A stretch of 64,000 bases of DNA from an uncultured Candidatus Saccharibacteria bacterium. Lineage in GTDB: Bacteria > Patescibacteriota > Minisyncoccia > Minisyncoccales > JANBVM01. The position numbers were made by a program, and so were the translations under genes. Below are positions 46,011-59,073 of this stretch, one piece after another. Below the pieces are notes generated by a model. It made no database searches. It worked only from the letters and a program-made list of their open reading frames with translations, and had not been told where the DNA came from. The DNA is taken from assembly GCA_964450805.1 (NCBI GenBank), contig CAYVDD010000001.1, forward strand, positions 393,288-457,287, written 5' to 3'. The stretch's first letter is position 1; the number at the start of each line of letters is the position of its first letter.

Positions 46011-46150
46011 AAAAACCGCCCTTAAGGCGATTCTTTGTTAAAAGTTACAAGCTCCCCTTATTGGACGCGTTCAGAACCGTTGATTGGGGAAAGATTAAGG
46101 AAAACCTTAAGGACTTGGAACCTATTTTGGCTGGATTTTGAATAAAAAAA
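46011..46150. repeat. intergenic repeat, copy 1 (hairpin + GCTCCCC + Y-type core)
   Basis: GC hairpin CGCC/GGCG (46017-46029) with T6 on the minus strand. GCTCCCC is at 46051-46057. A 22-nt run at 46060-46081 is identical to 58383-58404. The similarity continues to about 46146. Confidence 0.8.
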
Positions 46151-46158
46151 GATGGTGA

Positions 46159-46311
46159 CTAAAAACCAATCTGGATTCTGCTGTCGTACTCTTCCCTGTT
46201 TGTCTTACTATCCTGAGCTGTAAAATTGGTAATTATATCTTTAGCCATTTCCGGCTTGGCAAAATCAAGTTTGATATAATCTTCTTTTTTCAATTTACTA
46301 TTTCTATTCAT
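46159..46311 (-). CDS. small hypothetical protein (50 aa)
   Basis: ATG at 46309-46311 with only a weak SD (GGAAAG). The product is MNRNSKLKKEDYIKLDFAKPEMAKDIITNFTAQDSKTNREEYDSRIQIGF. It is not in the track because it is under 60 aa. Confidence 0.3.
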   Translation of the reverse strand: MNRNSKLKKEDYIKLDFAKPEMAKDIITNFTAQDSKTNREEYDSRIQIGF

Positions 46312-46328
46312 ACTTTCCAAATAAAAAA

Positions 46329-46346
46329 AGGTAATGATTATTACCT
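46329..46346 (-). terminator. intrinsic terminator ending the radical-SAM operon
   Basis: 7-bp stem AGGTAAT (46329-46335) / ATTACCT (46340-46346) with a 4-nt loop. The minus strand continues with T8. Confidence 0.6.
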
Positions 46347-46366
46347 TTATTCAAGTATTTATTATT

Positions 46367-46534
46367 TTAAAAAATACCTTTATCGCATTTTTCTATTCTT
46401 CCAAAACAGTAAGTACGCTCTTTGCTCTTGGCACGACAAGTATAATGAAATTTTCTATATCTATTAGAAAAGAAAATATAGAAATGTGGACATAAGTCCA
46501 TATCTGCACCCTTATCCTGAATTTTATATACCAA
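46367..46534 (-). CDS. small Cys-rich ORF (44-55 aa; start uncertain)
   Basis: The frame is open from 46713 down to the TAA at 46367-46369, with no ATG/GTG/TTG until the TTG at 46532-46534. That TTG is preceded by GAGGAG with a 9-nt spacer. An ATG lies at 46499-46501. The C-terminus is MDLCPHFYIFFSNRYRKFHYTCRAKSKERTYCFGRIEKCDKGIF (4 Cys). Confidence 0.4.
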   Translation of the reverse strand: MVYKIQDKGADMDLCPHFYIFFSNRYRKFHYTCRAKSKERTYCFGRIEKCDKGIF

Positions 46535-46688
46535 ATATAATTGCTCCTCAGCCGAGAGAAAACTTAAAGATTCTTTAAAAATATTGATCTGTATTAAAAT
46601 TTCATCTAATCTTTTCCACCTTTCATTTACATTAGATAAATTCCTTAATTCTATTATGTGACCTCTAGCTTTTATCTCCTTAAATAAC

Positions 46689-47729
46689 TCATCTATAAAA
46701 TGTATGATCTTCCACCCCCTTTAATTGATTAATTAAATTAAGGTTAAGATGAGAACAAAAAGAATCCAGCTTTAAGGTGGCAACTCGAGAAGCAAATTCT
46801 CCCGCATCCTTTAAAGAATAATTTCTATGGAGAGCACATGTAAAAGCAGCAGCAAAAGCATCACCAATACCTATCTTTGAAATATCATTTTTTGCCCTTA
46901 CAGAACTAGAATTAATTATAATCTTCTCCCTGCCTGAATGAATCAACGCTCCTTTTTCGCCATAAGTTACAATGCATATTTCTACTTTTTTCAATATTTT
47001 TCTAATCGGATTTTCACAATACTTATATTCGTGTTGATTCATAAAAATTATATCTGCTGAATTATTAACAATGTCAAGGATATCTTTTCTGTCTTTAATT
47101 GGGATAGTATCAACGCCCCCAATATTAATTATCACTTTTTTATTCCAACTATTTGCTAATTGAACAAATTCTCTCCAAATAGGCCTGATTTTTTCTGTGT
47201 TTGCTGAAAAAAGGCTACTAAAAAAAATGGTACTCTTTTTCAATTCTTTCTTTAATTTTAAATCACAATCTAAGCAACAAGAAGCACCATAATCAACGAT
47301 TTTAACCCTTTTATAGCTACTAATTTCTTTTTTCTCTGGTATCCAAGCTACTAAAATAGAGCATGTATTATTATTCTCTTTTTCATTAATTATCGCACTC
47401 AGAATTTTTGTTTCTTCCAAACAGATTTTTAGTTTCTCTTTAAATATTAAACTTGCATTATCATCTCCGATAACACCAGCTAAAATAGAAGGTAAACCCA
47501 ATAATGAACAATTTATACCAAAATTAAACTCCACGCCTCCAATTGAAAACAAGAGATCTTCCTTTTTATTTACATTACTTATAATCTCAGAGATACTCAA
47601 TTTACTAATTTCTTCTTTTGGAAGACTAGAAGGGTTAACAGAAAAAATATCTTTAATGCGACTTGAATTATTGATTATTATATTTATATCAAGAATAGGT
47701 CTGCCTAAACAGAAAACTCTGTCTTTCAT
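46689..47729 (-). CDS. PfkB-family sugar/nucleoside kinase
   Basis: N-terminal GG motif region IGGVEFNFGINCSLLG and C-terminal GIGDAFAAAF (the PfkB anion-hole/DxxGAGD-like motif). Confidence 0.6.
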   Translation of the reverse strand: MKDRVFCLGRPILDINIIINNSSRIKDIFSVNPSSLPKEEISKLSISEIISNVNKKEDLLFSIGGVEFNFGINCSLLGLPSILAGVIGDDNASLIFKEKLKICLEETKILSAIINEKENNNTCSILVAWIPEKKEISSYKRVKIVDYGASCCLDCDLKLKKELKKSTIFFSSLFSANTEKIRPIWREFVQLANSWNKKVIINIGGVDTIPIKDRKDILDIVNNSADIIFMNQHEYKYCENPIRKILKKVEICIVTYGEKGALIHSGREKIIINSSSVRAKNDISKIGIGDAFAAAFTCALHRNYSLKDAGEFASRVATLKLDSFCSHLNLNLINQLKGVEDHTFYR

Positions 47730-47788
47730 TTTTTTTCATCTCGATTTTTAAATTTTAAAAAGCTTCTCGTTTATTTTACATAAAAAGT

Positions 47789-48448
47789 TTAATTTTGCAA
47801 ATTAAAATATAAATATTTATCAAGTCTTTTAACAACATCTTTTATGCCTTTTCTAATTTTTAATAGTTCTGGCTGACTGCAATCAAAAAAGGGAAGAGAA
47901 AATGGCTTATCGGTCACGAGAAGTATAGAAATAACAGGGATGTTCTTTTTTCTTCCCCACTCGTAGAGATAATAAGTTTCCATATCTATTATGTCTATTT
48001 TATCATCCTGAAATTTCTTTAGAAATTTTGAACCTAAAATCATCTGTGATGTAGTTGCTATTTTATACTTTATTTCTAATTTAACTAACGAATTTATTTT
48101 TAATTTTTCTAAAACTGCAGTTTTAGGAATGACGACTTCACCTACCTGTAAATTTTGATTCAAAGCACCACAGAAACCAAGAAGAATAATTTTTCTAATT
48201 CTCGAAGGAACGAAAATTTCAAAACAATCTTTTATATGAGAACCAAGGGGAACTTTTAATATTGTTACTGGATTTGAATTGACCTTTATTTTTGTTCTCT
48301 TCCACCAGCCTTTTGTTTCTTCAATTAAAGGATAATGGGCTTTTATTTTCTCATAAATTTTATTTATTGGTGTAAGAATTACATAACCTTTTGGTAATTC
48401 AAAAGCACCAAAGAATGTGAAGAAAATTTTTTCTAAATTGCCTTTCAT
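47789..48448 (-). CDS. nucleoside phosphorylase/nucleosidase superfamily (PNP_UDP_1-like) protein
   Basis: Motifs ILLGFCGALNQNLQVGEVVIP and IIDMETYYLYEW...ISILLVTDKP resemble the MTA/SAH-nucleosidase and futalosine-hydrolase motifs. Confidence 0.55.
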   Translation of the reverse strand: MKGNLEKIFFTFFGAFELPKGYVILTPINKIYEKIKAHYPLIEETKGWWKRTKIKVNSNPVTILKVPLGSHIKDCFEIFVPSRIRKIILLGFCGALNQNLQVGEVVIPKTAVLEKLKINSLVKLEIKYKIATTSQMILGSKFLKKFQDDKIDIIDMETYYLYEWGRKKNIPVISILLVTDKPFSLPFFDCSQPELLKIRKGIKDVVKRLDKYLYFNLQN

Positions 48449-48464
48449 AACTAATTCCTAATAA

Positions 48465-49691
48465 TTAGTCTAAAATTAGAGAACGAAATTTTTCTTTTAA
48501 AGGAATACCCTTCTTCTCTGCCGAATAAATGCTCCATAAAAAATGGTCCAGTAAAGTGTTGTTTAAAATACACTCTCTTTCGTCAACGCTATTTTTATAT
48601 CTCATGATCCCATCCCAAAAACAACCTCCTCCGCAAACCCCTATAGCTGGACATCCTTTACAAAAATCGTTGTTAACAGGAATGTTTTCTTGAAAATATT
48701 TCAAATTATACTTACTAGAATTCTCTAAGCTATCAATTTTCGTACAAAAAGTTTCTCTCCCGCTAGGATAAAATGTCTTTTGTTCTCCGGCTATTTTACA
48801 ACCATAGAACCTAAATTTTTTATTTATCAGTGGTGAAAATCTCTTTGCTAATTGATCAATATAAATTTTTTTCTCTATTGCGAAATCAAATAATTTAATC
48901 ATCTCTTCAGTATATTTTTCCATATCGAAATTAAATTTTTTATCTCTAACAAAATGGGGAAAGCTTACCCCTATATATTTAACTTTTAAGTCTTCACTAA
49001 AAAATTTAACTACTTCTGATAAACGCCCAACATTATCGCCTGAAGCAAGACAGACGATACCTAAACTACAATTATTCTCTTGAAGAGTCTTAATGTTTTT
49101 AATAACTTTTTGGTAAATATTTTCACCATTCTTAAATTTCCTTTGTTTATTGTCTGTTTCTTTCCCATCTAAAGAAATCAAAAGCCTAACATGCTTATTA
49201 TCTTTTAAAACTCTCAAAATATCTTCGTTAATAATAGTGCCATTAGTGAATATTTTAATCGGATCTTTGATATGATTAATAAGAAATTTAACAACTTTCC
49301 AATTTAAAAAAGGTTCTCCCCCTATTATCATACAAGAGCCTTTTTTAATATTTTTCTTATAAAAAGAAATAATTTCCCGGGCCGTCTTTAATCCCATAGA
49401 AGTATTAACTTCCGAGAGTTTGTTTTTATAAACCAAACAATAATCACATGCGCAATTACAAGAAAGAGTTACTTCTATTCGAATCTTTCTTAATAACGGA
49501 GTTTTAAAAACTACATTTGGAGTTTGACCTTCCATTTGCTTCACAATGTGATTTAAACTTGGAAGAAAATCTTGAGCAGAATCTAAATATATTGTCCCAA
49601 AACTCTTTCTATTAAACAGTATAATTTTATCTCTTCTATTAAAACTAAATACATTATCAGAAAGTTGCTTTATACTACTTCTCAAAAACAT
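48465..49691 (-). CDS. radical SAM enzyme with a full SPASM domain and an RRE/PqqD-like N-terminal extension
   Basis: CX3CX2C in SCNCACDYC, then MIIGGEPF. The C-terminus has a complete SPASM pattern: CKIAGEQKTFYPSGRETFC (C-x12-G-x4-C) plus CKGCPAIGVCGGGC (CX2CX5CX3C) plus a downstream Cys. The first ~65 aa (FSFNRRDKIILFNRKSFGTIYLDSAQDFL) resemble a peptide-recognition wHTH/beta-strand element. Confidence 0.8.
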   Translation of the reverse strand: MFLRSSIKQLSDNVFSFNRRDKIILFNRKSFGTIYLDSAQDFLPSLNHIVKQMEGQTPNVVFKTPLLRKIRIEVTLSCNCACDYCLVYKNKLSEVNTSMGLKTAREIISFYKKNIKKGSCMIIGGEPFLNWKVVKFLINHIKDPIKIFTNGTIINEDILRVLKDNKHVRLLISLDGKETDNKQRKFKNGENIYQKVIKNIKTLQENNCSLGIVCLASGDNVGRLSEVVKFFSEDLKVKYIGVSFPHFVRDKKFNFDMEKYTEEMIKLFDFAIEKKIYIDQLAKRFSPLINKKFRFYGCKIAGEQKTFYPSGRETFCTKIDSLENSSKYNLKYFQENIPVNNDFCKGCPAIGVCGGGCFWDGIMRYKNSVDERECILNNTLLDHFLWSIYSAEKKGIPLKEKFRSLILD

Positions 49692-49696
49692 TTTCT

Positions 49697-50713
49697 TTAT
49701 TTTTTATTATAGATAATATTAATACCTTCATCTTTCAGTTCTTTTTTAAAAAAATTCTTAAGAAAAAATTTATAAGCTGAAGATATAAAGTATCCCGTAT
49801 AACTTCTAGGAATCCCTTTCCAATCAGGACACTGAGAACAAGGAAACATAGAAAAATCGCCCTTGAGTTGCCGCTCTCTAAGTTCTATCATCTTTTGGCT
49901 GTTCCAAATTTCTATCAGACTTTTCTCCTTCACATTTCCTACTTTTAAATTTCCTTGTAAATCCTGGCAGCAAACCAATACGTCTCCATTCCACAAAATT
50001 ACTAAAGTTTCCCAAAGGTAAAAACAGGGAAGTCGGTTCTTAATTTTCTGCTTCAGTTTAGAAATTTCCTCAAAGGGTTCTATATTTTTAGCTTCCCAAG
50101 CTCTCGAACAAAAAGATTTTATATTAATATAATTAATATCTGTTCTCTTCCATTTTTCAATAAAAGGCTTAACCTCATCTTCATTAATTTTCATTTTAAT
50201 CATCTGAATTTGTGTTTTTGTTCTAAGCCCTTTTTCTTTCTTAATATCAAGAAATTTAAAAATGTTATTCTCGACGACGTCAAAATCAGCTCCCCTTCTT
50301 ATTTTCTCATAGGTTTCTTTTCTAAATCCATCTACTGAAAAAACAATATAATCTAATCCGGCTTCCATAAGTCTTAGAGAAGTGTCCTTGTCAAGAAGGG
50401 TGGCATTAGTAGAAAGTCTAGTTCTTATTCCATTATTCTTTAAGATTTTAATAATTTCTGGTAATTTGGGGTGAAGAAGCGGTTCGCCAGCGAAATGAAG
50501 CCAAATATACTGATCCCTAAGTATTTCTTTATTTTTATCAATGAGAGATTGTAATAATTCAAGCCCTAAAAATCCTTGTTCTCTAGAGCTTTTATCTATA
50601 CAAATAGGACAGTTTAAATTACAGAAATTGGTTGGTTCTATATTTAAAATTTTAGGATAAGAAGAGATTTTTGATTTCCTCTCTATATATTCTTTAACTT
50701 TAGTAGAGATCAT
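49697..50713 (-). CDS. radical SAM enzyme, SPASM/twitch subfamily
   Basis: Motifs TNFCNLNCPIC and HFAGEPLL. The C-terminus has CFYLWETLVILWNGDVLVC (C-x12-G-x4-C) and CSQC. Confidence 0.8.
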   Translation of the reverse strand: MISTKVKEYIERKSKISSYPKILNIEPTNFCNLNCPICIDKSSREQGFLGLELLQSLIDKNKEILRDQYIWLHFAGEPLLHPKLPEIIKILKNNGIRTRLSTNATLLDKDTSLRLMEAGLDYIVFSVDGFRKETYEKIRRGADFDVVENNIFKFLDIKKEKGLRTKTQIQMIKMKINEDEVKPFIEKWKRTDINYINIKSFCSRAWEAKNIEPFEEISKLKQKIKNRLPCFYLWETLVILWNGDVLVCCQDLQGNLKVGNVKEKSLIEIWNSQKMIELRERQLKGDFSMFPCSQCPDWKGIPRSYTGYFISSAYKFFLKNFFKKELKDEGINIIYNKK

Positions 50714-51309
50714 TTTTCTAAATGAGAAAAATCGTTAATTATAATTGGATCAAAAATTAATTTTTTTTTGTGCTCGAGAACAGTAAGGCCAGTGGTACGA
50801 AAATGAATTTTCTCTATTTCATCAAGAGATAAATTGGTTAAGCTCTTCAAAAGAACCTTTATTACAGTAACATGTGTTACCAATAATACGTCTTTGTTTC
50901 TTTTCACCAGTTCTGAAATAAATGGCAGAATTCTTTGTTCGGCGTCTTTATAACTTTCCCCTTCCGGAATAGTAACATTCCATTTATCTTCTTTTCTTTT
51001 ATGATATATCTCGGGGTAATTTTGTTCAGCTTCCTCTAAAGTCAATCTCTCAAAAATTCCAAAATTCACCTCGTTAAGGGCGGGGGTAATATTAACTTTT
51101 AAAGATAAGTATTCTTCTATAGCATTTGCTGTCTGAATAGCTCTTTTTAACTGGCTTGAGTAAATTTCTTGAATACCCTTATGTTTAAGTCTTTCACCTA
51201 TTTTGTGGGATTGAGAAACACCTTCTTCTGTTAAATCTAAATCTGTAAAGCTCAGAAAACCTATCTTTTTCCATGATATCGATCCATGTCTTGTAACAAA
51301 AATTTTCAT
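50710..51309 (-). CDS. histidine phosphatase (phosphoglycerate-mutase-like) family protein
   Basis: N-terminal catalytic RHG (IFVTRHGSISW) and second His context LLVTHVTVIK. It overlaps the downstream rSAM gene by 4 nt. Confidence 0.75.
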   Translation of the reverse strand: MKIFVTRHGSISWKKIGFLSFTDLDLTEEGVSQSHKIGERLKHKGIQEIYSSQLKRAIQTANAIEEYLSLKVNITPALNEVNFGIFERLTLEEAEQNYPEIYHKRKEDKWNVTIPEGESYKDAEQRILPFISELVKRNKDVLLVTHVTVIKVLLKSLTNLSLDEIEKIHFRTTGLTVLEHKKKLIFDPIIINDFSHLEK

Positions 51310-51338
51310 ATTTTTATTTTAATTTCTTAATTTTAAAT

Positions 51339-52325
51339 TTATTCACTAATTTTAGGAAGAACATCATTTGAATAGTATGACTTATTCTGATATTTTGCCA
51401 TAAAAGGGCACCCTATCATTTTTTCAGCCTTTCTTCTTTCAACCATTTTTCTAAAACTTGAAATTTCTTTTGACTCAGTTAATTCTTTAAAATTTTTTTT
51501 ATGCAAAGATTCTTTTGTGGTAAATGATTGATCTGTTTTATAAACCCAGGAGCATGGAGAAAGATAACCTTCGGGACTCAAAAAAAAGAGGTCTTTTCCT
51601 CCAGGACATAATTCTAAGCCTTTTTTTCCAAATGGATTTCGATGCATACTAATCAGTATTTTATCTTTATATTTTTCCTGAAGTTCTACTACTTCTTTTA
51701 TAATAGAAACATTGTCTCTTTCGGGGGAGAGAGATATATTATCTTTAAATCTACCAACTTTTACAATAGAACCCAGTCTTAACTCTTGAACACCCAAGGA
51801 AATACAAAAATTAACCATTTTTTCAAGATATTTTTCATTTTTCTTCCAAATAATACATCCCAATCTAACTGGAATTCCATACTTTACTAAAATTTTAATA
51901 TTTTCTACTACTTTATCAAAAAAATCTCCTCCGCGAAGATGGTTATAAATTGAAGCTTTATGCCCATCCAAACTCAAGTGCAAAAGATTAATCTTTATTT
52001 CAGATAAATCCTTAATTAATTTCTCGGTGAAAAGATAACCGTTCGTTGCCACATTAACCCTCTTATTGTTCTTTTTCAAATATTTCAGAAAATTCATTAA
52101 GTTCTGCTCTATAAAAGGTTCTCCTCCGCTAATATAAAAATCTTTAATGCCTGAATTCATTATTTCATCTAAAATATCTTCCGATAAATTAAAACTATCG
52201 CAATCAGAAGACAAAGAAGCATTTGAACAACAATGCTTGCATTTCATATTACATCTAGAAGTTACTTCCCATACCAACTTTTTTCCATCTCTTGGGGCAC
52301 TGAATAAACAAAAATTATTATTCAT
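51339..52325 (-). CDS. radical SAM enzyme, twitch/SPASM-like C-terminus
   Basis: Motifs SRCNMKCKHC and FYISGGEPF. The C-terminus has CPGGKDLFFLSPEGYLSPC (C-x12-G-x4-C). The track start (TTG at 52376) falls inside the -35 of the predicted promoter, so the ATG at 52323-52325 (MNNNFCLF) is preferred. Confidence 0.75.
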   Translation of the reverse strand: MNNNFCLFSAPRDGKKLVWEVTSRCNMKCKHCCSNASLSSDCDSFNLSEDILDEIMNSGIKDFYISGGEPFIEQNLMNFLKYLKKNNKRVNVATNGYLFTEKLIKDLSEIKINLLHLSLDGHKASIYNHLRGGDFFDKVVENIKILVKYGIPVRLGCIIWKKNEKYLEKMVNFCISLGVQELRLGSIVKVGRFKDNISLSPERDNVSIIKEVVELQEKYKDKILISMHRNPFGKKGLELCPGGKDLFFLSPEGYLSPCSWVYKTDQSFTTKESLHKKNFKELTESKEISSFRKMVERRKAEKMIGCPFMAKYQNKSYYSNDVLPKISE

Positions 52326-52347
52326 AATATTTATCTTTTCTATCTCC

Positions 52348-52376
52348 AAAATAGACTCTTTTTGGAAAAAATTCAA
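52348..52376 (-). promoter_or_regulatory. candidate promoter TTGAAT-17 nt-TATTTT for the radical-SAM operon
   Basis: Minus strand: -35 TTGAAT (52371-52376) and -10 TATTTT (52348-52353). The same hexamers and spacing recur at 58276-58304, directly after the repeat's terminator hairpin. Confidence 0.4.
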
Positions 52377-52640
52377 GCTAAAATTAAAAACCCGATATCT
52401 CGGGTTTTCGATGCGGATCGGTCTCTCGAACCGAGCACAAGCCTGCTCCCCAGGTCGGTCTCGAACTCAGATTTGAAGGGGAAATTAAGCGATTTTAAGG
52501 AGTCTCAATAATGCCTCTCGGTCGGGGCTATTTTAAGCTAAATGAGACAAATGAGACACTACTTAAGGGCATTTTTTAGTGTCTCATTTTCTTCTAAATT
52601 TTAACGAAAAAATAAATACATTTAAGAATATAACTTGCAA
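52370..52640. repeat. intergenic repeat, copy 2 (hairpin + extra core + GCTCCCC + X-type core + IR/promoter module)
   Basis: Positions 52370-52396 are identical (27 nt) to 58298-58324. Hairpin ACCCGA/TCGGGT at 52390-52405. GCTCCCC at 52445-52451. GGTCGGTCTCGAAC core. Positions 52517-52542 are identical (26 nt) to 58923-58948. ATGAGACA x3 lies at 52542-52587. Confidence 0.85.
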
Positions 52641-53252: not shown

Positions 53253-53281
53253 TACTATAAAATTAAAAGGAGGGAAATAAA

Positions 53282-54016
53282 CTGAAAGCAGTAATTTTAG
53301 CAGCTGGTAAAGGGGATAGATTAAGCCCATTAACAATACCTTTAGGTAAAAGCATGTTGCCAATCTATAATAAACCAATGATAGTATATCTAATAGAGAA
53401 ACTGATTGAAGCTGGCGCTACTAGAATATTATCTATTTTTCATTCCTCAACGGTTGGTTTATATGATGAAATATTAAAACGACAACCCTTTAACAATAGA
53501 CTACAACTAATGGCTGATTCAAGGCTTTTGGGACCAGCAAAAACTCTAGAACTAGCAGAGAGATGGGTAAATGAAGATGACTTTGTTTTGACATTTGGTG
53601 ACAGTGTATTCTTTGAACCACTACCTAGGTTAGATACAAAAACAGCACCACACATGTTTGTAATGAAAATGGACTATACCGAAGACAATCTAAGTAAGTA
53701 TGGACAGGTAAAAGTGTTTAATGGACGAGTTATGAAGAAAAAAGATAAGCCTAAAGTCATATTCAGTGACATTATCCAAGCTACAATTTGGATACTGCCG
53801 TTTAATATTTTTAATGAGGTAAAAAAGTACAAAGTAGCAATACTTGAACCAATGAATTTCAGAATAAGTGCACTAATTGATCGTTTGATTGAAAAAAACC
53901 CAATAGATTGCACGTTTTTACCCCCTAACTCTTACCTAGACTGTGGTGACTTTGAAGCATTATTTAAAGCAAATCAAAAAATGAGAGAAAAAGTATTTTC
54001 TCAAAAAAAACATTAA
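53282..54016 (+). CDS. sugar-1-phosphate nucleotidyltransferase (RmlA/G1P-NTase-like), probable CTG start
   Basis: The frame upstream of the track ATG (53354) encodes the canonical G-loop (L)KAVILAAGKGDRLSPLTIPLGKSMLPI. It opens after the TAA at 53264-53266. The only plausible initiator is the CTG at 53282-53284, about 8 nt after the SD AAGGAGGG (53267-53274). Confidence 0.7.
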   Translation: MKAVILAAGKGDRLSPLTIPLGKSMLPIYNKPMIVYLIEKLIEAGATRILSIFHSSTVGLYDEILKRQPFNNRLQLMADSRLLGPAKTLELAERWVNEDDFVLTFGDSVFFEPLPRLDTKTAPHMFVMKMDYTEDNLSKYGQVKVFNGRVMKKKDKPKVIFSDIIQATIWILPFNIFNEVKKYKVAILEPMNFRISALIDRLIEKNPIDCTFLPPNSYLDCGDFEALFKANQKMREKVFSQKKH

Positions 54017-54091
54017 AATTGCTTTAAAACATCACTTTTTAGGTAAGATTTTTTTTGTATTTTTTAATAGATAATTCTATTATTCAATAAT

Positions 54092-54484
54092 ATGCTTAGA
54101 AGAATATCATTACTTTTATTGCAAGATAAGAATGGTAGGGTTTTAATGCAACATAGAGATAAAGATGCTCCCACAAACCCTGATTTGTGGGGTCTTTTCG
54201 GTGGACACATCAGGGAAAATGAAGAACCGAAAATTGCTGCTATCAGAGAATTAAATGAAGAATTAGGAATACAAATAACAGAACTTAATTTTTTTAAAAG
54301 ATATGATTTTGAGTATATAAATCGAGAGGTCTTTGTCTACACAGGTAGAATGAACATAGATTTAGAGCAATTAAAGAAACAACAAACAGAAGGACAAAAT
54401 ATTGGTTTTTTTACTTATGAGGAGTTAAAGAATATGAAAGTAGTAAAGTATGTTATGGAAGTACTGTATGATTTTTTAAGTTAA
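54092..54484 (+). CDS. NUDIX hydrolase
   Basis: Complete NUDIX box GGHIRENEEPKIAAIRELNEELGI. Confidence 0.8.
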   Translation: MLRRISLLLLQDKNGRVLMQHRDKDAPTNPDLWGLFGGHIRENEEPKIAAIRELNEELGIQITELNFFKRYDFEYINREVFVYTGRMNIDLEQLKKQQTEGQNIGFFTYEELKNMKVVKYVMEVLYDFLS

Positions 54485-54600
54485 AATAACTTAAGAAAAT
54501 ATTTAAAAAAAGATTTAGCTTTTCCTGTTAAAACTGTGAAATGGAAATAAATTAAATAAAGTCTTTAATTGCTTAAATTTAATTCGATGGAATTAAAAAA

Positions 54601-54618
54601 AATCGCCAAAAGGCGATT
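54601..54618. terminator. bidirectional intrinsic terminator
   Basis: AATCGCC (54601-54607) / GGCGATT (54612-54618) with a 4-nt loop, an A7 run upstream and T-rich sequence on the minus strand. It sits between the convergent NUDIX (+) and rSAM (-) genes. Confidence 0.65.
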
Positions 54619-54625
54619 AATTAAT

Positions 54626-55693
54626 TTAAACAAAACTTATATTTATATCCAAATCCGAAACTATAGGTAAAGGTATGTCACCAGTTTCAATACAATCGTA
54701 CAGAACAGCATCATACCGATTATGTTTACAACGCTGAGTGCACTTCATAGATTTCATTTTGTCTAACATAAGTTTATGTTTTTCACCCAACCAGACTTTC
54801 ATAAAACCATCCTTTATATTTCCAATGTGTCTTTCTGGATAGTTTCTAAATTTGATACACGACGCCATATCTCCACCAGCAGTTATAACCCCAACGAGAG
54901 GACTACTAATACAACCCGAAGTTTCAGCTGCTACCGGTATCTCTACAGTCATTGCAGTGGTAGTAAGTACAGAAAAATCTTCCGTTTGATAACTCGTAGC
55001 TTTCTCCATGCCTTTATTCACCTGATTAATTATGATTTCAGGAAAAGATACTCCTTTTTCACTATAAGAATACTTGTATTCTATGTATGACAAACCTAAA
55101 TCTTTGATAAGCTTAGCTGCCCCCGGGATATCACTTACATTCTCGGACATTACCCTAAAAGAAATACCTAAAAGTTTAGGATCCACTCCGTTTTCTATAG
55201 ATTCTTTAATGTTTCCAATAACTTTGAGAAAATGGTCGCGCCTATGCACAACTTTGTAGGTTGATCGTTTCGCAGCGTCAAGGCTTATTCTGATAAAGTC
55301 TAAGTCACCACCGAGCATATTTGGTAAAACCTTTTGAAGTAAGACTCCATTAGTAATGATCCCATTATCTAAGCCGTAACTTTTAGAGGTAGATATAAGC
55401 AATGAAATATCAGAATGTACAGTCGGTTCACCGCCACCAACCCAATTAATACCACGGACACAGTTATCTTTCATCTCTTTAAGTACAGGAATTAACACTT
55501 GTGTATCAATGCTTCGAATTTTATTTTTGAAACTCGATTGGAACTCACAATCTATGCAGCTTTGATTACAGAACCCATCCACAGGATCTATTTCAACACA
55601 TATTGGCGTAGGAATTCCACCAGAAAGTAAGGTTTCTACTTTTTCTCTATGAAATAGTATTTTACGAAAATCATATCTATTTTTAATTATCAA
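54626..55693 (-). CDS. radical SAM enzyme, twitch/SPASM-like
   Basis: Motifs DGFCNQSCIDC (CX3CX2C) and NWVGGGEPT. The C-terminus has CISSPLVGVITAGGDMASC (C-x12-G-x4-C), then CTQRC. Confidence 0.75.
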   Translation of the reverse strand: MIIKNRYDFRKILFHREKVETLLSGGIPTPICVEIDPVDGFCNQSCIDCEFQSSFKNKIRSIDTQVLIPVLKEMKDNCVRGINWVGGGEPTVHSDISLLISTSKSYGLDNGIITNGVLLQKVLPNMLGGDLDFIRISLDAAKRSTYKVVHRRDHFLKVIGNIKESIENGVDPKLLGISFRVMSENVSDIPGAAKLIKDLGLSYIEYKYSYSEKGVSFPEIIINQVNKGMEKATSYQTEDFSVLTTTAMTVEIPVAAETSGCISSPLVGVITAGGDMASCIKFRNYPERHIGNIKDGFMKVWLGEKHKLMLDKMKSMKCTQRCKHNRYDAVLYDCIETGDIPLPIVSDLDINISFV

Positions 55694-55778
55694 TCAAATG
55701 CACCAATTTATTTTTTTTATTAGTTGCTATATCCAGCTTAATAATAATAGAATGCTTGTCAATAGTCACCGAAACAGA

Positions 55779-56390
55779 TTAATCTTGTGGAGCAAATGTA
55801 TTTTCTATTACTCCAGGCAATAAATCATATATAGATCTGCCAATAGCTTTTTCTATATCTCGCTTTATCTCAAAAGTTTTCTCTAGCTTTTCTACTAAGA
55901 AAGCTGTTTTTTTATGTCTTAATATGACATCTATCATTCTTTTCTCGAGCATCAAAAAGCCATTTTCGCCTCCTAACACATCGCATAACTGTATCAAACG
56001 GTCGTATTCTGTATATTTAACTTCAGATAAGTACTTAGAAATAAAAAGGGTGTCCTCATTAGAACAATCTTGTTTGCCAGCATAGGAGTCTATTTCTTTA
56101 ATCAAAAAGGGGTGTGTCAAGCATATTCTAGCAACATCTGGATACCCCAAATCATTCATGAATCTATATCCGTCTATAGTATGTTTCATGTAAAAAATAC
56201 CCTCTCTCCTCCCAATATCGTGAAGACAACCCAACACATATGATTTTTCTGGATCAAGTTCTTTATGATACTTTGCTATATTTCGAGCAGCTTCAGCTAC
56301 ATTAAGAGAGTGCTTAATCCATGGTCCAGGATTAAGTTTTTCTGCTTCCATTAATATTTCCTTGGTTTTCTCCAAAGATGGTGTCTTCAT
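55779..56390 (-). CDS. HD-domain metal-dependent phosphohydrolase
   Basis: H...HD motif: HSLNVAEAARNIA ... LGCLHDIGR. Confidence 0.7.
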   Translation of the reverse strand: MKTPSLEKTKEILMEAEKLNPGPWIKHSLNVAEAARNIAKYHKELDPEKSYVLGCLHDIGRREGIFYMKHTIDGYRFMNDLGYPDVARICLTHPFLIKEIDSYAGKQDCSNEDTLFISKYLSEVKYTEYDRLIQLCDVLGGENGFLMLEKRMIDVILRHKKTAFLVEKLEKTFEIKRDIEKAIGRSIYDLLPGVIENTFAPQD

Positions 56391-56480
56391 AATTTTTATT
56401 GCTTCAATAGTAATTAAGCTAGATTATAATATTATAAAAAAAATGACAGATCAGTAAAGTATCAATCTGTCAGATTATGT

Positions 56481-57227
56481 TTAAGGAAAACTACCAAAAT
56501 GCTTAGTAATCAAGTACTGATTGTTTAATAAGTATTCTAATCTTTTGGGTTCACCATAGTCTATATATAAACTTTCACTCCAAAGAACCCAAACTTTTGG
56601 AATAAGACAAGAAATAGATTCTCGTTCGAAAGTTCTATCTTTCTTTATATTTAAACTTGCCAGAAACTTCTGGGTTCTCACTATATATAATCCCATAGCA
56701 CTACCCTTAATATCGTATTGGATATTTCTTGATTTCGAGGATTCGTACATACTAACTACTTGACCAGTGTTCAGTGTTTTGACTAATCCAAAATTAGAAA
56801 CAGATTTTCTCCTTGTAGCCAGAACAATAGCATCTGCCATTTTAGCTAATCTGAGGTTATAAAGATCTAACAGACCAACATCCCAAACAGTATCAGCTAC
56901 CATAACAAAAGCATAGGGCGTATAAATCTTAGAAACACCATGGTATGCACTCGCTACAGTACTAACCAATTCATCTTCTAGTACGACAGAAACATTATCC
57001 CAGTATTTCTCAACCTCTCTCACTATCTGTTCTCCGTGAAAATGGGCTGTGATGACTATGTTGTATATCCCTGACTTAATTATCCAATTTATCAAATAAT
57101 GTATAAACGGAACACCGTTGAATTTTATTAAACATTTTGGTTTATCTTCGCAGTAGCTACCTAACCTACTTCCTTTACCAGAGGCTAAGATTACCGCACT
57201 ACAATCATTTAATTTCCTAAGTCGCAA
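56481..57227 (-). CDS. sugar-phosphate nucleotidyltransferase
   Basis: G-loop AVILASGKGSRLGSYCEDKPKCLIKFNGVPFIHYLI. Confidence 0.7.
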   Translation of the reverse strand: MRLRKLNDCSAVILASGKGSRLGSYCEDKPKCLIKFNGVPFIHYLINWIIKSGIYNIVITAHFHGEQIVREVEKYWDNVSVVLEDELVSTVASAYHGVSKIYTPYAFVMVADTVWDVGLLDLYNLRLAKMADAIVLATRRKSVSNFGLVKTLNTGQVVSMYESSKSRNIQYDIKGSAMGLYIVRTQKFLASLNIKKDRTFERESISCLIPKVWVLWSESLYIDYGEPKRLEYLLNNQYLITKHFGSFP

Positions 57228-57241
57228 AACAATCCCTCTTA

Positions 57242-57658
57242 TTAATTCTGTATGTTTTTAGAATTTAAATCTTTTATAAATTTGGAAAGAATTTTATTAT
57301 GGTCGAAAGCAAGATCAAGTCTATTAGCTTCGTCTAGTAATAACCATCTATACTCTTTAACATATTTGGGGGTTACTTCAGGTATCCCTTTTATAGGCCC
57401 AAAAAAGAAAAGGCTTACCGTACGAATACTATTAAATATTCCGTAATTATAGGTGAAGAAAGTCGGCTCATATTCACATCTCAAATCTGTCTGTACCTCG
57501 TACTTTACTGCTTTAGATGGATCGCTAAATTTACTAAAAGCTCCATAGCCCCCAACAAAGCCCCAATAATCTTTAAACGGCTCTCTAGCTCTCTTAATCA
57601 ACAATGTCTTTTGATGATTTAAGATCATCGCCACCGTAACAAGTAATGGTTGGTCCAT
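57242..57658 (-). CDS. NUDIX-fold protein with a degenerate NUDIX box
   Basis: LLIKRAREPFKDYWGFVGGYGAF...AVKYEVQTDL. The fold-typical G-G context is present, but the REUXEE glutamates are only partly conserved. An SD GGAG lies 9 nt upstream of the ATG. Confidence 0.5.
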   Translation of the reverse strand: MDQPLLVTVAMILNHQKTLLIKRAREPFKDYWGFVGGYGAFSKFSDPSKAVKYEVQTDLRCEYEPTFFTYNYGIFNSIRTVSLFFFGPIKGIPEVTPKYVKEYRWLLLDEANRLDLAFDHNKILSKFIKDLNSKNIQN

Positions 57659-57697
57659 TTACATCAACTCCATTTTATTTTTTTAAATACTAGACTC

Positions 57698-57726
57698 CTA
57701 ATATCAAATACTCTATTTATTGTCAA
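57698..57726 (-). promoter_or_regulatory. candidate promoter TTGACA-17 nt-TATTAG
   Basis: Minus strand: -35 TTGACA (57721-57726) and -10 TATTAG (57698-57703). The -35 is embedded in TTTTAGCTTGACA, the same context as in the repeat copies. Confidence 0.45.
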
Positions 57727-57748
57727 GCTAAAACAAAACAAAAATAAA

Positions 57749-57770
57749 AACTCCATTCATCGGCGGAGTT
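57749..57770 (-). terminator. intrinsic terminator after the histidine-kinase fragment
   Basis: AACTCC (57749-57754) / GGAGTT (57765-57770) with a 10-nt loop. The minus strand continues with a T-rich run. Confidence 0.5.
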
Positions 57771-57799
57771 AATACCTTTCTTTATTAACAAACACATTA

Positions 57800-58207
57800 T
57801 TAAACCCCTACCAAAAAGGGGAAGCTAACAATAAAAGTACTGCCTTTCCCCCTGCCCCTGCTTTCAGCTTTCACCGTAGCCTTATGCGATTCTACAAGGT
57901 TCTTAACGATAAAGAGCCCTAAACCTGATCCATTAGGATGCAAAGAGGTAGCTTTTTCACCCCTGTGGAATAGCTTAAACAGGTTCTTTTTGTCTTTTCT
58001 GTCTAGGCCAATACCAGAATCCTGAACTGAAATCTGGATGAACTTATTATCCTTTTCTTTTATTAAATCAAGGGAAACCTCAACCTTACCTTTGTCTGTA
58101 TAAAGCACAGCATTATCAATAAGACGAGATACTATCCTATTTATTATTTCTTCATCAAGTAGGGCTAAAGGAATTTTATCCTTTGACTTGTTGAACACCA
58201 TTTTCAA
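57800..58207 (-). pseudogene. N-terminally truncated sensor histidine kinase (HATPase_c domain only)
   Basis: N-box DNAVLYT, G1 VQDSGIGL and G2 GSGLGLFIVK are present. There is no DHp/H-box and no sensor or TM region. The frame is open only up to 58267, where it meets an AGGAGG and the repeat-borne promoter. It could still be expressed as a stand-alone ATPase domain. Confidence 0.55.
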
Positions 58208-58275
58208 TCCTTTAGCCTCAGCTATAGACTGCTGGGATAAATAGGGACGTTTCTGAATTAAAATTATCCTCCTTC

Positions 58276-58304
58276 AAAATAGCTCTGTTTCAAGTAAAAT
58301 TCAA
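58276..58304 (-). promoter_or_regulatory. candidate promoter TTGAAT-17 nt-TATTTT
   Basis: Minus strand: -35 TTGAAT (58299-58304) and -10 TATTTT (58276-58281), followed by AGGAGG. It is homologous to 52348-52376. Confidence 0.4.
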
Positions 58305-58472
58305 GCTAAAATTAAAAACCCGATTTAGTCGGTTTTTTGACGGCGATCGGTCTCCAGAACCGCGCCCAATCGGGCTCCCCCTATTGGACGCGTTCAGAAC
58401 CGTTAATTGGGTAGAAATTAGGGAAAATCTTAAAGACTTGGAGTATATTTTAGTGAAGGGTTAAAAAAAAAC
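58298..58472. repeat. intergenic repeat, copy 3 (hairpin + extra core + GCTCCCC + Y-type core)
   Basis: The left 27 nt are identical to copy 2. Degenerate hairpin CCGA/TCGG (58320-58332). GATCGGTCTCCAGAACCG extra core. GCTCCCC at 58374-58380. The Y core shares a 22-nt identical run with copy 1. Confidence 0.85.
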
Positions 58473-58509
58473 CAGATTAAATTGGCTTTTATTTAGCTAT
58501 AATAACTTG

Positions 58510-58773
58510 TTAGTCATAACATATACTGGTTTCGTCAATCTTGTTCTCACGACAAATGTATAGTTTGTCATCTTCACCTTTAATAATGTAACCTATAAGG
58601 TCACAGCTACAGTTACACATTTCAATTATTCTTCCTCCGTGGCCATCTTCATAAGGTTCTGTTCTCACATTATCTTGTTTAAAAACGCTATTACAATTAA
58701 GACAAACTCGGCGATAACCATCATTGTATAGTTCTCTTAGACTTAATCTTGTTATTTTTGTCACCTCTACCAT
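58510..58773 (-). CDS. small Cys-rich hypothetical protein (87 aa)
   Basis: Cys clusters are CLNCNSVF, CNCSCD, ICRENK and SICYD, suggesting a possible zinc-binding fold. It is the only gene between repeat copies 3 and 4. Confidence 0.55.
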   Translation of the reverse strand: MVEVTKITRLSLRELYNDGYRRVCLNCNSVFKQDNVRTEPYEDGHGGRIIEMCNCSCDLIGYIIKGEDDKLYICRENKIDETSICYD

Positions 58774-58794
58774 TATTCTTTTGTTAATATTAGA

Positions 58795-58823
58795 AGTCTA
58801 ACAAGCCACTTTCAAAAAGTCAA
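58795..58823 (-). promoter_or_regulatory. candidate promoter TTGACT-17 nt-TAGACT
   Basis: Minus strand: -35 TTGACT (58818-58823), overlapping the T-run of the copy-4 hairpin, and -10 TAGACT (58795-58800). Confidence 0.4.
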
Positions 58824-59036
58824 AACCCGAACTCTTGGCTCGGGATGACGGCTCCCCCGGTCGGTCTGGAACCAAAATTTGCGGGGAAAATCGGGCGTTT
58901 TTGAGGGTTTCAAATAACGCCCCTCGGTCGGGGCTATTTTAAGCTAAAATGAGACAAATGAGACACTATTTAAAGGTATGTCGAAGTGTCTCATTTTAGC
59001 TTAAATTTTGACAAAAAATTAGATACATTTTATAAC
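58821..59036. repeat. intergenic repeat, copy 4 (hairpin + GCTCCCC + X-type core + IR/promoter module)
   Basis: Hairpin CCCGA/TCGGG (58826-58844). GCTCCCC at 58851-58857. GGTCGGTCTGGAAC core. A 26-nt run at 58923-58948 is identical to copy 2. ATGAGACA x3 lies at 58949-58994. It lacks the ~30-nt extra core of copies 2 and 3. Confidence 0.85.
59008..59036 (+). promoter_or_regulatory. near-consensus promoter TTGACA-17 nt-TATAAC
   Basis: -35 at 59008-59013 and -10 at 59031-59036, reading toward the ORF at 59074. The homologous copy-2 segment (52601-52634) has TTAACG and a 5-nt insertion before TATAAC. Confidence 0.55.
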
Positions 59037-59073
59037 CAAATAGAAAATTCAATTTATTAATAAATTATAAGAA

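Follow-up and report, generated by a model that had tools for sequence, protein, structure and literature searches.

What are the repeated intergenic segments that separate the gene blocks of this accessory region, and how did they come to lie there? The window analysed here, i.e. the whole stretch of 64,000 nucleotides, contains four copies in one orientation: 46011-46150 (c1), 52370-52640 (c2), 58298-58472 (c3) and 58821-59036 (c4). These copies and the identical runs quoted for them in a preliminary description were all found in the sequence. Comparisons between copies by nhmmer gave E = 1e-13 to 1e-32 and revealed no fifth copy in the window; all four lie within 13 kb and none in the remaining 51 kb. 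The similarity between c2 and c4 extends over about 190 nt (80-81%) and that between c1 and c3 over 78 nt (86%), while the left modules of c2 and c3 are alike over 72 nt (71%). The heptamer GCTCCCC starts at 46051, 52445, 58374 and 58851. Pattern scans of the window gave exactly two matches for each of four sequences, namely the X core GCTCCCCNGGTCGGTCTNGAAC (52445, 58851), the Y core TTGGACGCGTTCAGAACCGTT (46061, 58384), the insert GATCGGTCTCNNGAACCG (52416, 58345) and ATGAGACAAATGAGACACTA (52542, 58949); about zero matches are expected for each in shuffled sequence. The copy boundaries are unequal, and module loss is confined to the outer end. The anatomy described earlier (modules, mosaicism, minus-strand terminators, flanking promoters and block boundaries) was correct. 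The features are as follows.

46010-46036, minus strand: c1 terminator hairpin and T-run between the core and lspA, the B′-side flank of the junction (terminator scan, sequence reading).
46051-46081, minus strand: c1 Y-type core, AACGGTTCTGAACGCGTCCAATAAGGGGAGC on the minus strand, with a tRNA-Asn-like terminal GGAGC.
46082-46150, minus strand: c1 element-side arm, truncated and without inverted repeat, homologous to 58405-58472 (alignment).
52326-52376, minus strand: outward promoter-like TTGAAT-17-TATTTT and 5′ UTR of a radical-SAM operon, common to c2 and c3 (sequence reading, c2-c3 similarity).
52386-52409, minus strand: c2 terminator hairpin (terminator scan).
52410-52444, minus strand: c2 "insert" or P′-type module, AGGCTTGTGCTCGGTTCGAGAGACCGATCCGCATC on the minus strand, a hairpin with a GACCGA motif.
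52445-52470, minus strand: c2 X-type core, CTGAGTTCGAGACCGACCTGGGGAGC on the minus strand, resembling the tRNA-Asn 3′ end at 18/26.
52471-52539, minus strand: c2 arm interior, a degenerate -35/-10-like stretch and box1 GCCCCGACCGAGAGGC at 52513-52528 (alignment).
52540-52589, minus strand: c2 inverted repeat containing tandem 9-mers (GAGACAC..GTGTCTCATTTGTCTCATTT), presumably an operator bound by a protein (pattern scan).
52594-52640, plus strand: c2 divergent promoter region for a plus-strand GNAT gene (copy similarity, sequence reading).
57723-57770, minus strand: incomplete and weakly matching copy, limited to the hairpin/promoter junction (24 nt at 75%, terminator scan).
58298-58338, minus strand: c3 outward promoter junction and hairpin, with a 27-nt run in common with c2 (sequence reading, terminator scan).
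58339-58373, minus strand: c3 P′-type module, the Y core in inverted form (dyad score).
58374-58404, minus strand: c3 Y-type core (pattern scan).
58405-58472, minus strand: c3 element-side arm, truncated (similarity to c1).
58826-58844, minus strand: c4 terminator hairpin (terminator scan).
58851-58876, minus strand: c4 X-type core, TTTGGTTCCAGACCGACCGGGGGAGC on the minus strand, 19/26 against the tRNA-Asn 3′ end.
58877-58946, minus strand: c4 arm interior, a TTGAAA -35-like stretch and box1 at 58919-58934 (alignment, scan).
58947-58996, minus strand: c4 inverted repeat with tandem 9-mers (pattern scan).
59001-59036, plus strand: c4 divergent promoter TTGACA-17-TATAAC for a plus-strand zinc-ribbon gene (sequence reading, copy similarity).

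Each copy sits upstream of a minus-strand gene, with the terminator 50-75 nt before that gene. Minus-strand terminator hairpins were located at left ends (46036-46010, 52409-52386 and 58844-58826) and also at 57770-57749; terminator-like sites in the region number 18, against 6.0 +/- 2.5 in shuffles. The minus-strand TTGAAT-17-TATTTT promoter reported on the left side of c2 and c3 is indeed seen in both. Of the partial copy proposed at 57723-57770, the hairpin is real, whereas the match to the junction is weak. The P′-type module of c2 recurs after cores in the loci L008, L010 and L013, and similar motifs follow tRNAs adjoining serine recombinases. The P′-type module of c3 is the inverted Y core, which makes c3 a quasi-palindrome of about 50 bp, with a dyad score of 24 against 12.6 +/- 2.4 in shuffles (reached by 0/200). 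The dyad symmetry expected for a serine-integrase site is significant in c3 alone.

The elements had at first been matched to no tRNA, a statement that needs revision: over the terminal 26 nt of a relative's tRNA-Asn, the heptamer plus X core agrees at 18-19 positions, and no shuffled sequence does so. The core mimics the last ~26 nt of tRNA-Asn, ending in GGAGC; on the minus strand it follows the T-loop, T-stem, acceptor strand, G73 and C of that tRNA. The real tRNA-Asn 3′ end in relatives is GTAGGTTCGAGTCCTACCGCCGGAGC. When the window was scanned with a relative's terminal 26-mer, allowing up to 8 mismatches, only the cores of c4 (7 mismatches) and c2 (8) were matched, with none in shuffled windows. 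The c4 terminator resembles, on direct reading, those after the real tRNA-Asn of the closest relative, L011, and after copy b of L008. Identity between core and genuine tRNA-Asn is limited to GGAGC and the T-loop, and the tRNA resemblance of the Y cores is weak.

We favour, at a probability of about 0.65, the reading that c1-c4 are junction scars of serial site-specific integration of islands or cassettes at the tRNA-Asn 3′ end. Gene order agrees with this. L011 has the order tRNA-Asn, lspA, lgt with a gap of 40 nt between tRNA and lspA, and its proteins are 80% (Lgt) and 71% (LspA) identical to those of the window; c1 occupies the slot of this intact tRNA-Asn, upstream of lspA-lgt. Among the relatives, this synteny was seen in L011 only, the others having a beta-propeller gene upstream of lspA. 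The interval from GlyRS to lspA spans 20.8 kb and holds six putative scars, with housekeeping genes on either side. The same genome has two related fragments shortly beyond the window's right edge (L195 6113-6136 and 6355-6402), and a fragment immediately 3′ of the stop codon of GlyRS agrees with the end of tRNA-Asn at 22/22 positions. At the GlyRS end, tRNA-Asn survives as these 22 nt only. Neither an intact tRNA-Asn nor a recombinase gene was found in 44-64 kb of the window or the next 9 kb.

Whether copies occur elsewhere had been put forward as a check on the cassette-junction idea, and further ones were found. Relatives L008 and L010 carry family copies at different intergenic sites, and the inverted-repeat 20-mer GTGTCTCATTTGTCTCATTT is present in at least 120 metagenome contigs (GC 0.30-0.58) and in two viral contigs. 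Without exception among family loci, the inverted repeat is followed by a T-arm/acceptor-like core, and box1 co-varies with the core throughout the family. The core endings are those of particular tRNA types: GCTCCGCCA for Ser, GCCAGCC for Gln, GGCTCAC for Lys and GGGGAGCC for Asn. Same-orientation arrays with a spacing of 0.6-3 kb occur in L129 (4 copies) and L057 (3), and further arrays in L044, L110, L111, L118, L090 and L008. The genes near family copies have diverse accessory functions, including methylases, restriction enzymes, Fic, radical SAM and glycosyltransferases.

In two related contigs, tRNA and core form direct repeats that bracket cargo. The tRNA-Ser of L044 and a core 7.5 kb away have CCGCCAGGACAAT[T/G]TTGTATCG in common, with two serine recombinases in between, and the tRNA-Ser and core of L119, 6 kb apart, have CTCCGCCATGATC in common; in both contigs, the 3′ end of the upstream tRNA-Ser recurs, together with its flank, at the core. 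The Y-type core of c1 also has CTGAACGCGT in common with the core beside the L044 serine recombinase. Same-strand tRNA-Lys genes lie upstream of GGCTCAC cores in L030 and L094. Among about 15 tRNA/element pairs, a shared run of at least 13 nt was seen in only 2.

A large serine recombinase was the sole recurrent neighbour gene, at 9 of the 66 loci with enough upstream sequence; in four loci its distance to the inverted repeat is 100-320 nt, and the other 57 inverted-repeat loci have no serine recombinase within 6 kb. Tyrosine integrases were absent from the 25 most frequent (i.e. all recurrent) Pfam families, tallied from the 150 nearest mid-size ORFs around family loci. Of 56 homologues of this recombinase in viral contigs, 13 are accompanied by a tRNA in convergent orientation (7 Ser, 3 Gln, Asp, Trp and Arg), and four of these tRNAs lie 120-200 nt beyond the recombinase stop. 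The flanks carry family motifs. In none of the 56 do the 700 nt before the start contain the tandem 9-mer repeat, and the link between recombinase and site is therefore an association and not a proof. The probable enzyme is a large serine recombinase from this clade, whose members often adjoin tRNA genes.

Each scar would read, on the minus strand, as an element-derived arm whose retained length varies by copy (when complete, it has the inverted repeat and its tandem 9-mers, box1 and a promoter-like stretch), then the tRNA-Asn-like core, and downstream of it a P′-type hairpin module or, alternatively, a terminator of the tRNA type with an outward promoter behind it. The inverted repeat is likely an operator between divergent promoters, and both it and box1 presumably have ligands. 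The scars are most likely attR-like and attP-like hybrid sites, made in this genome, we infer, by recombination. Every fresh integration would displace older elements downstream, and such successive displacement would leave the gene blocks separated by a row of scars that all point the same way and combine their modules in mosaic fashion. Of the three readings first offered, the evidence backs the third, in which the elements are recombination sites that serve cassette shuffling; the terminator-promoter module, once considered as a portable unit, is better described as the junction flank.

The copies might instead be a family of regulatory cassettes, i.e. operator, terminator and outward-promoter regions that co-regulate accessory operons through one DNA-binding protein and spread inside the cluster through duplication or homologous recombination of the ordinary kind, with the tRNA-like core as an inherited passenger. 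In c2 and c4 the inverted repeat does have divergent promoters on its two sides; a canonical TTGAAA-17-TATAAT promoter directly precedes the core in many family members, every copy stands upstream of a minus-strand gene, and the clustering within 13 kb would suit local spread. However, no flanking gene in the window was duplicated alongside the copies, the modules adjoin unrelated genes in other genomes and phage contigs, the core endings follow tRNA species and repeat upstream tRNA 3′ ends, and no regulator gene is consistently encoded near family loci. We consider this explanation unlikely. Regulation and recombination are compatible, and the arm may well carry real promoters.

It is highly improbable that the copies encode a structured minus-strand RNA, such as a tRNA-like minihelix sRNA, a 3′-UTR element or a leader/attenuator, that stops at the terminator hairpin and regulates the minus-strand gene beyond it. 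The closing terminators agree with such a role, as do single-sequence folding scores (z = -1.9 to -2.8 on the minus strand versus -1.0 to -1.7 on the plus strand), a -10-like TAAAAT ahead of box1 and, on direct reading, a UUCCCCG/CGGGGGA pairing in c4 that encloses a T-arm-like hairpin. However, a conserved fold is absent: RNAalifold on 30 family members gave -0.43 kcal/mol with 3 pairs and no compensatory changes, the 5′ T-stem and CCCC/GGGG pairing are lost in some members, and TTCCAGA-type T-loops violate the tRNA consensus. ARAGORN found no tRNA or tmRNA in the copies, and the downstream genes are mutually unrelated. Rfam was searched for a family that would explain the element and returned no match at the gathering threshold or at E <= 10. 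A MITE- or REP-like non-autonomous element inserted between genes is hardly tenable, since the copies, short, intergenic and multi-copy in several genomes as they are, have no detectable terminal inverted repeats or target-site duplications, end unequally with modules missing at the outer end only, are clustered in one orientation rather than scattered, have no other copy in the 64 kb and have no recurrent transposase family beside family loci.

Integration at the tRNA-Asn 3′ end, our preferred explanation, has known parallels. The tycheposons of Prochlorococcus are tRNA-linked islands with elements divided by partial tRNA copies and with scattered remnants, and 910 of 937 elements have tyrosine recombinases (Hackl et al., bioRxiv 10.1101/2020.12.28.424599). 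The present locus is similar in its streamlined genome, tRNA-adjacent island and accessory cargo, in the proposed repeated integration at one site that drives older elements inward, and in elements or remnants separated by partial tRNA copies, many blocks being without integrase. It differs in that no recombinase recurs except a large serine recombinase, that the scar comprises a partial tRNA plus a conserved 100-200-nt arm (inverted repeat/tandem 9-mers, box1, promoter), that blocks can be one gene, that the host belongs to the Patescibacteria, and that intact tRNA is absent from the locus.

Staphylococcal SCC elements integrate at the 3′ end of rlmH/orfX through Ccr large serine recombinases and form composite islands, tandem arrays marked by short direct repeats, which include recombinase-less pseudo-elements needing recombinase in trans. 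A large serine recombinase, the 3′ end of a conserved gene, a tandem array and recombinase-less units would be common to both, whereas the SCC target is a protein-coding gene instead of a tRNA, the host lineage differs and the SCC repeats are short, without long conserved arm or promoter. Integron cassette arrays (attI/attC, IntI) likewise consist of single-gene cassettes in one orientation, each bounded by a recombination site; cassette-like examples here are c4, an 87-aa gene and c3, four sites in 4.3 kb in L129 and three in 2 kb in L008. Unlike in integrons, the IntI tyrosine recombinase is absent, the sites are not attC-type folded imperfect palindromes and have promoters of their own as well as a tRNA-like core, and the anchor is a tRNA site, not attI. 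Phages and ICEs that use attP/attR in tRNA genes bring the tRNA 3′ end with them in duplicate; the fragment that they displace marks the far junction, and their integrase gene lies near one end. Such targeting is classically the work of tyrosine integrases with arm-type sites, whereas the enzymes associated here are serine recombinases. To our knowledge, an upstream box that co-varies with the core is known in neither integrase class.

The process is of a type already well known, and the site family, of which we found no published description, is widespread. No recombinase occurs in the ~33 kb read here, and the gene blocks of this genome would therefore be recombinase-less remnants or cassettes mobilised in trans.

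The four same-orientation intergenic segments placed by the preliminary description were all present (c1 to c4), as were the identical runs reported between them and the heptamer GCTCCCC at 46051, 52445, 58374 and 58851, according to sequence reading and repeat comparison. Read on the minus strand, each copy consists of an arm, a core and a downstream flank. There are two core types, X and Y, and two copies carry an additional module (the "insert"). The copies and the features associated with them in the window are:

46011-46150, read on the minus strand, c1, Y core
52370-52640, read on the minus strand, c2, X core, with insert
58298-58472, read on the minus strand, c3, Y core, with insert
58821-59036, read on the minus strand, c4, X core
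52513-52528 and 58919-58934, box1 of c2 and c4, respectively (alignment A4, 30 loci)
57800-58207, minus strand, histidine-kinase fragment (HATPase_c only, 135 aa), downstream of c3

The patterns of the X core, the Y core, the insert and the ATGAGACA repeat were each matched exactly twice in 64 kb, compared with about zero in shuffled sequences. With each of the four copies as an nhmmer query, the other copies were recovered at E = 1e-13 to 1e-32, and no further copy was found in the 64-kb window. The left-end hairpins scored as minus-strand intrinsic terminators in a terminator scan, as had been proposed. The partial copy suggested at 57723-57770 does contain a hairpin, but its similarity is weak (only 24 nt at 75% identity). 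The arms of c1 and c3 lack the inverted repeat, and arm truncation is unequal among the copies. A third plus-strand promoter module (59433-59500, 72% identical to 59001-59068) lies upstream of a metallo-beta-lactamase-fold gene with no core alongside.

The source is a low-GC (~31%) Patescibacteria genome, and the contig that contains the window measures 636 kb. In the blocks that the copies separate there are genes for radical-SAM enzymes, NUDIX hydrolases, nucleotidyl transferases, an HD phosphohydrolase, a PfkB kinase, a phosphorylase and GNAT, together with the truncated histidine-kinase fragment and small unknown proteins. Housekeeping genes border the region on both sides: to the left lie lspA-lgt, and past the right end of the window come IleRS, RecO and GlyRS. 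The histidine-kinase fragment is missing its N-terminal part and has no ATG/GTG/TTG start, and its frame is open upstream to a strong GGAGG ribosome-binding site (sequence to 58275). It looks like, and is consistent with, a gene truncated at the c3 junction. No recombinase was found by Pfam among the main ORFs of 44-64 kb (at least 87 aa, plus two of 53-55 aa) or in the precomputed Pfam hits of genes called in the extension beyond the window. The GC content of 42000-46000 is 0.43-0.46, against ~0.30 in the remaining window; this segment holds lgt, lspA, a DUF4412 protein and two proteins without Pfam domains (42272-43513 and 43579-44133).

The preliminary description had matched the copies to no tRNA. 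This has to be revised for the X cores, which match the 3′ end of tRNA-Asn at 18/26 and 19/26 positions. On the minus strand the heptamer reads GGGGAGC and is preceded by GGTTC(G/C)AGACCGACC; together these correspond to the T-loop, the T-stem 3′ strand, the acceptor 3′ strand, the discriminator G and a C. Genuine tRNA-Asn(GTT) genes end in ...GTAGGTTCGAGTCCTACCGCCGGAGC in L011, the closest relative found (Lgt 80% and LspA 71% identical), and in ...CCTACCCGCGGAGC in another relative, L010. When the L011 26-mer was searched across the whole window with up to eight mismatches, exactly two matches were obtained, c4 (seven mismatches) and c2 (eight mismatches), and shuffled windows gave none. The Y cores are barely tRNA-like, their match being limited to GGAGC and a GGTTC-like motif. 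Two further fragments of tRNA-Asn type lie ~2.7 kb past the right end of the window in the same genome (locus L195):

L195 6113-6136, tRNA-Asn 3′ fragment GTTCGAGTCCTACCGCCGGAGC, adjoining the GlyRS stop codon, 22/22 match to L011
L195 6355-6402, another tRNA-Asn-like fragment (...CCCGCGGAGC) with a 9-bp hairpin before it, ~250 nt past the first

The 5′ two thirds of the tRNA are absent from the first fragment. ARAGORN and Rfam called only a tRNA-Leu at 21945, leaving the copies and the GlyRS-side fragments uncalled as tRNA, and an Rfam tRNA search of the repeat region gave no match at E-values up to 10. No intact tRNA-Asn was found by ARAGORN in the window, in L001 or in L195, and none lies in the 6 kb upstream of the L195 fragments. 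The stretch upstream of GlyRS contained housekeeping genes only.

In L011 the gene order is tRNA-Asn, 40 nt, lspA and lgt, with nothing inserted. Copy c1 takes the place and the orientation of this tRNA-Asn, and the 20.8 kb from the GlyRS fragment to c1 can therefore be read as an accessory insertion zone with six scars. In the genome of the window, 20.8 kb of accessory genes thus separate the GlyRS/tRNA fragment from lspA, against an empty site in L011, the comparison of occupied and empty sites being one between species and not between strains. More distant relatives carry a beta-propeller gene upstream of lspA instead, so that the ancestral arrangement is given by a single genome, L011.

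We propose that the array was built by integration into the 3′ end of a tRNA-Asn gene. Each event would leave an element with a restored tRNA end on one side and, on the other, a displaced junction composed of element arm, core and host flank. Repeated integration at the upstream site would stack elements, and the internal junctions would become arm-core-P′ hybrids, namely c2 and c3, both with the insert. The outermost junction, c1, would retain the host flank, that is, the terminator followed by lspA. Copy c4 does not fit this scheme, being internal to the array without an insert and with a tRNA-type terminator after its core; we read this terminator as contributed by a P′ arm. Arm truncation, the two core lineages and the different junction types would together generate the combinations A+X+B, A+Y, X+B and Y that the preliminary description took as a mosaic of modules, and a terminator with an outward promoter would make each scar look like a "terminator-promoter junction". 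Neither a recombinase nor an intact tRNA-Asn was present in the ~33 kb read.

The family extends well beyond the window. Relatives carry copies at other intergenic sites, three in 2 kb with single genes between them in L008 and three in L010, where the tRNA-Asn is followed by a 5.4-kb block with SNase, GmrSD and Panacea-type genes. The inverted repeat of the X copies reads, on the sense strand, AAATGAGACAC, ~15 nt and TAnAGTGTCTCATTTGTCTCATTT. Two viral contigs contain this exact module, as do at least 120 metagenome contigs; the GC content of these contigs ranges from 0.30 to 0.58 among the matches listed. In most loci with readable downstream sequence, a T-arm-like motif (GGTTC(C/T)AGACC, GGTACTTAACC or a variant) follows the repeat after 3-230 nt and is itself followed by an acceptor-like end, frequently finishing in CCA. 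The core ends fall into classes by tRNA: GCTCCGCCA for Ser, GCCAGCC(A) for Gln, GGCTCAC(A) for Lys and GGGGAGCC for Asn. Many members have a canonical promoter (TTGAAA/CTGGAA-17-TATAAT) between repeat and core, which has degenerated to TAATTT in the arm of the window subfamily. Same-orientation arrays with a spacing of 0.6-3 kb are common, including four copies in 4.3 kb in L129, three in L057 and further arrays in L044, L110, L111, L118, L090 and L008.

In L118 (10085-10131) an intact tRNA-Gln is directly followed by a second tRNA-Gln 3′ fragment (GTTCGAATCCTAGATCCCCAGC), and in L038 several tRNA-end-like fragments succeed one another after the core; these are further cases of stacked scars. 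On two phage-like contigs the element lies immediately upstream of intact tRNA genes (Ser, Arg, Ser and Ser in L019, 1682-4660; Arg, Gly, Arg and His in L035, 3169-3963), and the arm promoter may drive these phage tRNA arrays. In viral contig L015 (IMGVR_UViG_3300020195_001307) a sequence of at least 5.3 kb is directly repeated, the period being 9117 bp, which marks the contig as a concatemer or else as an artefact of assembly. Its gene products include terminase-like proteins, DNA methylases, a ribonucleotide reductase, a PfkB kinase and NUDIX, the last two being the same kinds of cargo as in the window blocks. Against species-representative genomes, the exact X core gave four chance matches only; the two inspected lie in apparent coding sequence of unrelated genomes. 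The GenBank phage collection contained no match to the family. Literature searches with the literal sequence strings gave no match, and no paper on such elements in Patescibacteria was found, both of which are weak evidence of absence.

A second sequence, box1, lies ~75-85 nt upstream of the core and is a direct, co-varying copy of its first 12 nt, with forms such as GACCGAGnn, GACCCACrTGCC and GACTGAG... The identity of box1 and core within an element was 7.67/12, compared with 6.63 ± 0.21 when elements were permuted (reached in 0/5000 permutations); the permutation test is inflated by subfamily structure, and the matching variants are nonetheless visible by eye. This suggests that one specificity determinant reads both box1 and core, perhaps through an accessory binding site. 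The tandem 9-mers of the arm also have variants that differ in the two central bases (GTCGCATTT, GTCCCATTT, GTCAGATTT and GTCACTTTT, each present twice; metagenome loci L027, L037, L117, L128, L132, L032 and L119), some of them stacked within one arm behind a GTCTCATTT pair. These variants may reflect different specificities of one DNA-binding protein. Much of the anatomy would also suit a purely regulatory arm, with an operator between promoters, and such a role may hold in addition to the integration model.

Direct repeats between tRNA ends and cores speak for recombination junctions. In L044 the 3′ end of tRNA-Ser(TGA) with its downstream flank, CCGCCAGGACAATTTTGTATCG, has a same-strand repeat (23/24 positions) at an element core that lies 7.5 kb further downstream, and the interval encodes two large serine recombinases. 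In L119 a tRNA-Ser end and a core have CTCCGCCATGATC in common, with 6 kb of cargo between them (Fic, GTP cyclohydrolase II and HAD), and in L030 and L094 a tRNA-Lys ending in GGCTCAC lies upstream of GGCTCAC cores on the same strand. The intact upstream tRNA is present in all four of these related loci, and long repeats common to tRNA and core were found in two pairs only.

Partner genes were counted in three sets of ORFs: those upstream, all those of 100 aa or more within 6 kb, and those of 45 aa or more within 1.5 kb. Neighbours across ~125 loci were heterogeneous accessory genes. No constant partner emerged other than the large serine recombinase (Resolvase + Recombinase + Zn_ribbon_recom), the sole recurrent neighbour family. 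It was found in 9 of the 66 loci that had 2.5 kb or more of sequence upstream, in four of them within 100-320 nt of the repeat, and was antisense to the element in all cases but one. Several recombinase fragments near elements look like decayed copies. Tyrosine integrase was absent from the 25 most frequent Pfam families (all the recurrent ones) of the 150 nearest mid-size ORFs. On viral contigs, 13 of 56 homologues of the recombinase have a convergent tRNA gene (7 Ser, 3 Gln, Asp, Trp and Arg), four of these at 120-200 nt past the recombinase stop. Such a layout would be expected at an attL. Past the convergent tRNAs, the downstream flanks carry GAC(C/T)GAG-type motifs, and one shares the GGACAATnTTnTATCGG of L044; since the insert resembles these motifs, we read it as a P′-side module. 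The tandem 9-mer repeat occurred in 0/56 of the homologues within 700 nt upstream of the start, and the inverted repeat, absent over the same distance in 56/56, was discarded as a constant feature of the recombinase promoter. The apparent link between recombinase and site is thus of a statistical kind.

An att site of a large serine recombinase would be expected to span ~40-50 bp, with imperfect dyad symmetry around a central dinucleotide. The Y core and the recombinase-adjacent site of L044 have CTGAACGCGT in common. In L044 a recombinase gene at 8071-9441 adjoins a site that extends from inverted repeat to core at ~9550-9760. The dyad score of c3 was 24, compared with 12.6 ± 2.4 in shuffles, and c2 and eight related sites did not exceed shuffles. 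Dyad symmetry, significant in c3 only, was therefore set aside as a general trait of core-plus-insert sites.

Other identities were also considered. An integron attC site would be expected near IntI and to fold as an imperfect palindrome of 57-141 nt; tyrosine recombinases are missing from the recurrent neighbour families, and neither a dyad nor a fold signal was seen. Read on its antisense strand, the inverted repeat is GACACTATA and resembles promoters of SP6/T7-type single-subunit phage RNA polymerases. Two thirds of the upstream genes are codirectional with the element, however, and the product would be mostly antisense RNA, so this identity was rejected. The minus-strand RNA family considered in the preliminary description was not borne out. 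Rfam gave no match to the copies, whether at the gathering threshold or with E-values as high as 10. For 30 X-type members, RNAalifold returned no consensus structure (-0.43 kcal/mol; three GGT/ACC pairs, zero compensatory changes). Single-sequence folds of both strands mildly favoured the minus strand and were not decisive. The T-stem 5′ half and the CCCC/GGGG pairing of the window copies are not kept in other members, and family loops such as TTCCAGA break the T-loop consensus. A tRNA-like minihelix, a split tRNA, a tmRNA 3′ end and a T-box leader were rejected because the 5′ T-stem and the acceptor pairing are unconserved. The MITE-like reading is not supported: a MITE would have terminal inverted repeats and target-site duplications, whereas the inverted repeats here are internal only (operator and hairpins) and the ends differ between copies.

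The closest serine-recombinase analogue of the proposed stacking is the SCC composite islands. The process itself, in which elements build up in tandem at a tRNA gene and leave partial tRNA copies and remnants without an integrase, is well known, and its closest description is that of the tycheposon islands of Prochlorococcus (bioRxiv 10.1101/2020.12.28.424599). Distinct here are the frequent single-gene spacing and the host lineage, as well as the conserved junction, a composite of operator, box1, promoter and tRNA-mimic core, and its association with recombinases of the serine and not the tyrosine type at tRNA 3′ ends. A bolder reading, which we consider unlikely (about one chance in seven), is that the family is the site component of an undescribed integron-like, serine-recombinase-driven cassette system in Patescibacteria and their phages. 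The cassettes of such a system would be small, recombinase-less and often of one gene, each with a ~100-250-bp composite site (operator, accessory box1, promoter and tRNA-3′-mimic core), and their serial capture at tRNA genes would be the work of a large serine recombinase supplied in trans. The co-variation of box1 and core would mark an accessory recognition element setting target specificity. This element could be bound by a protein; a far more speculative idea is that it is read by way of an arm transcript.

If the junctions are fossil scars only, the array is a tidy but otherwise ordinary case of island accretion. The composite site can serve as a searchable marker of island boundaries in metagenome-assembled genomes. 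Association with tRNA 3′ ends is unusual for large serine recombinases, and the family points to a clade of these enzymes with such an association, which may be of interest as programmable landing-pad integrases. It also raises the testable question of what reads the co-varying box1 and core. Patescibacteria genomes are tiny, and gene acquisition in them is poorly understood. The junctions would indicate that, in this one, an accessory metabolic region of 20.8 kb, with radical-SAM, NUDIX, nucleotidyl-transferase and kinase genes, was built block by block at a tRNA-Asn site.
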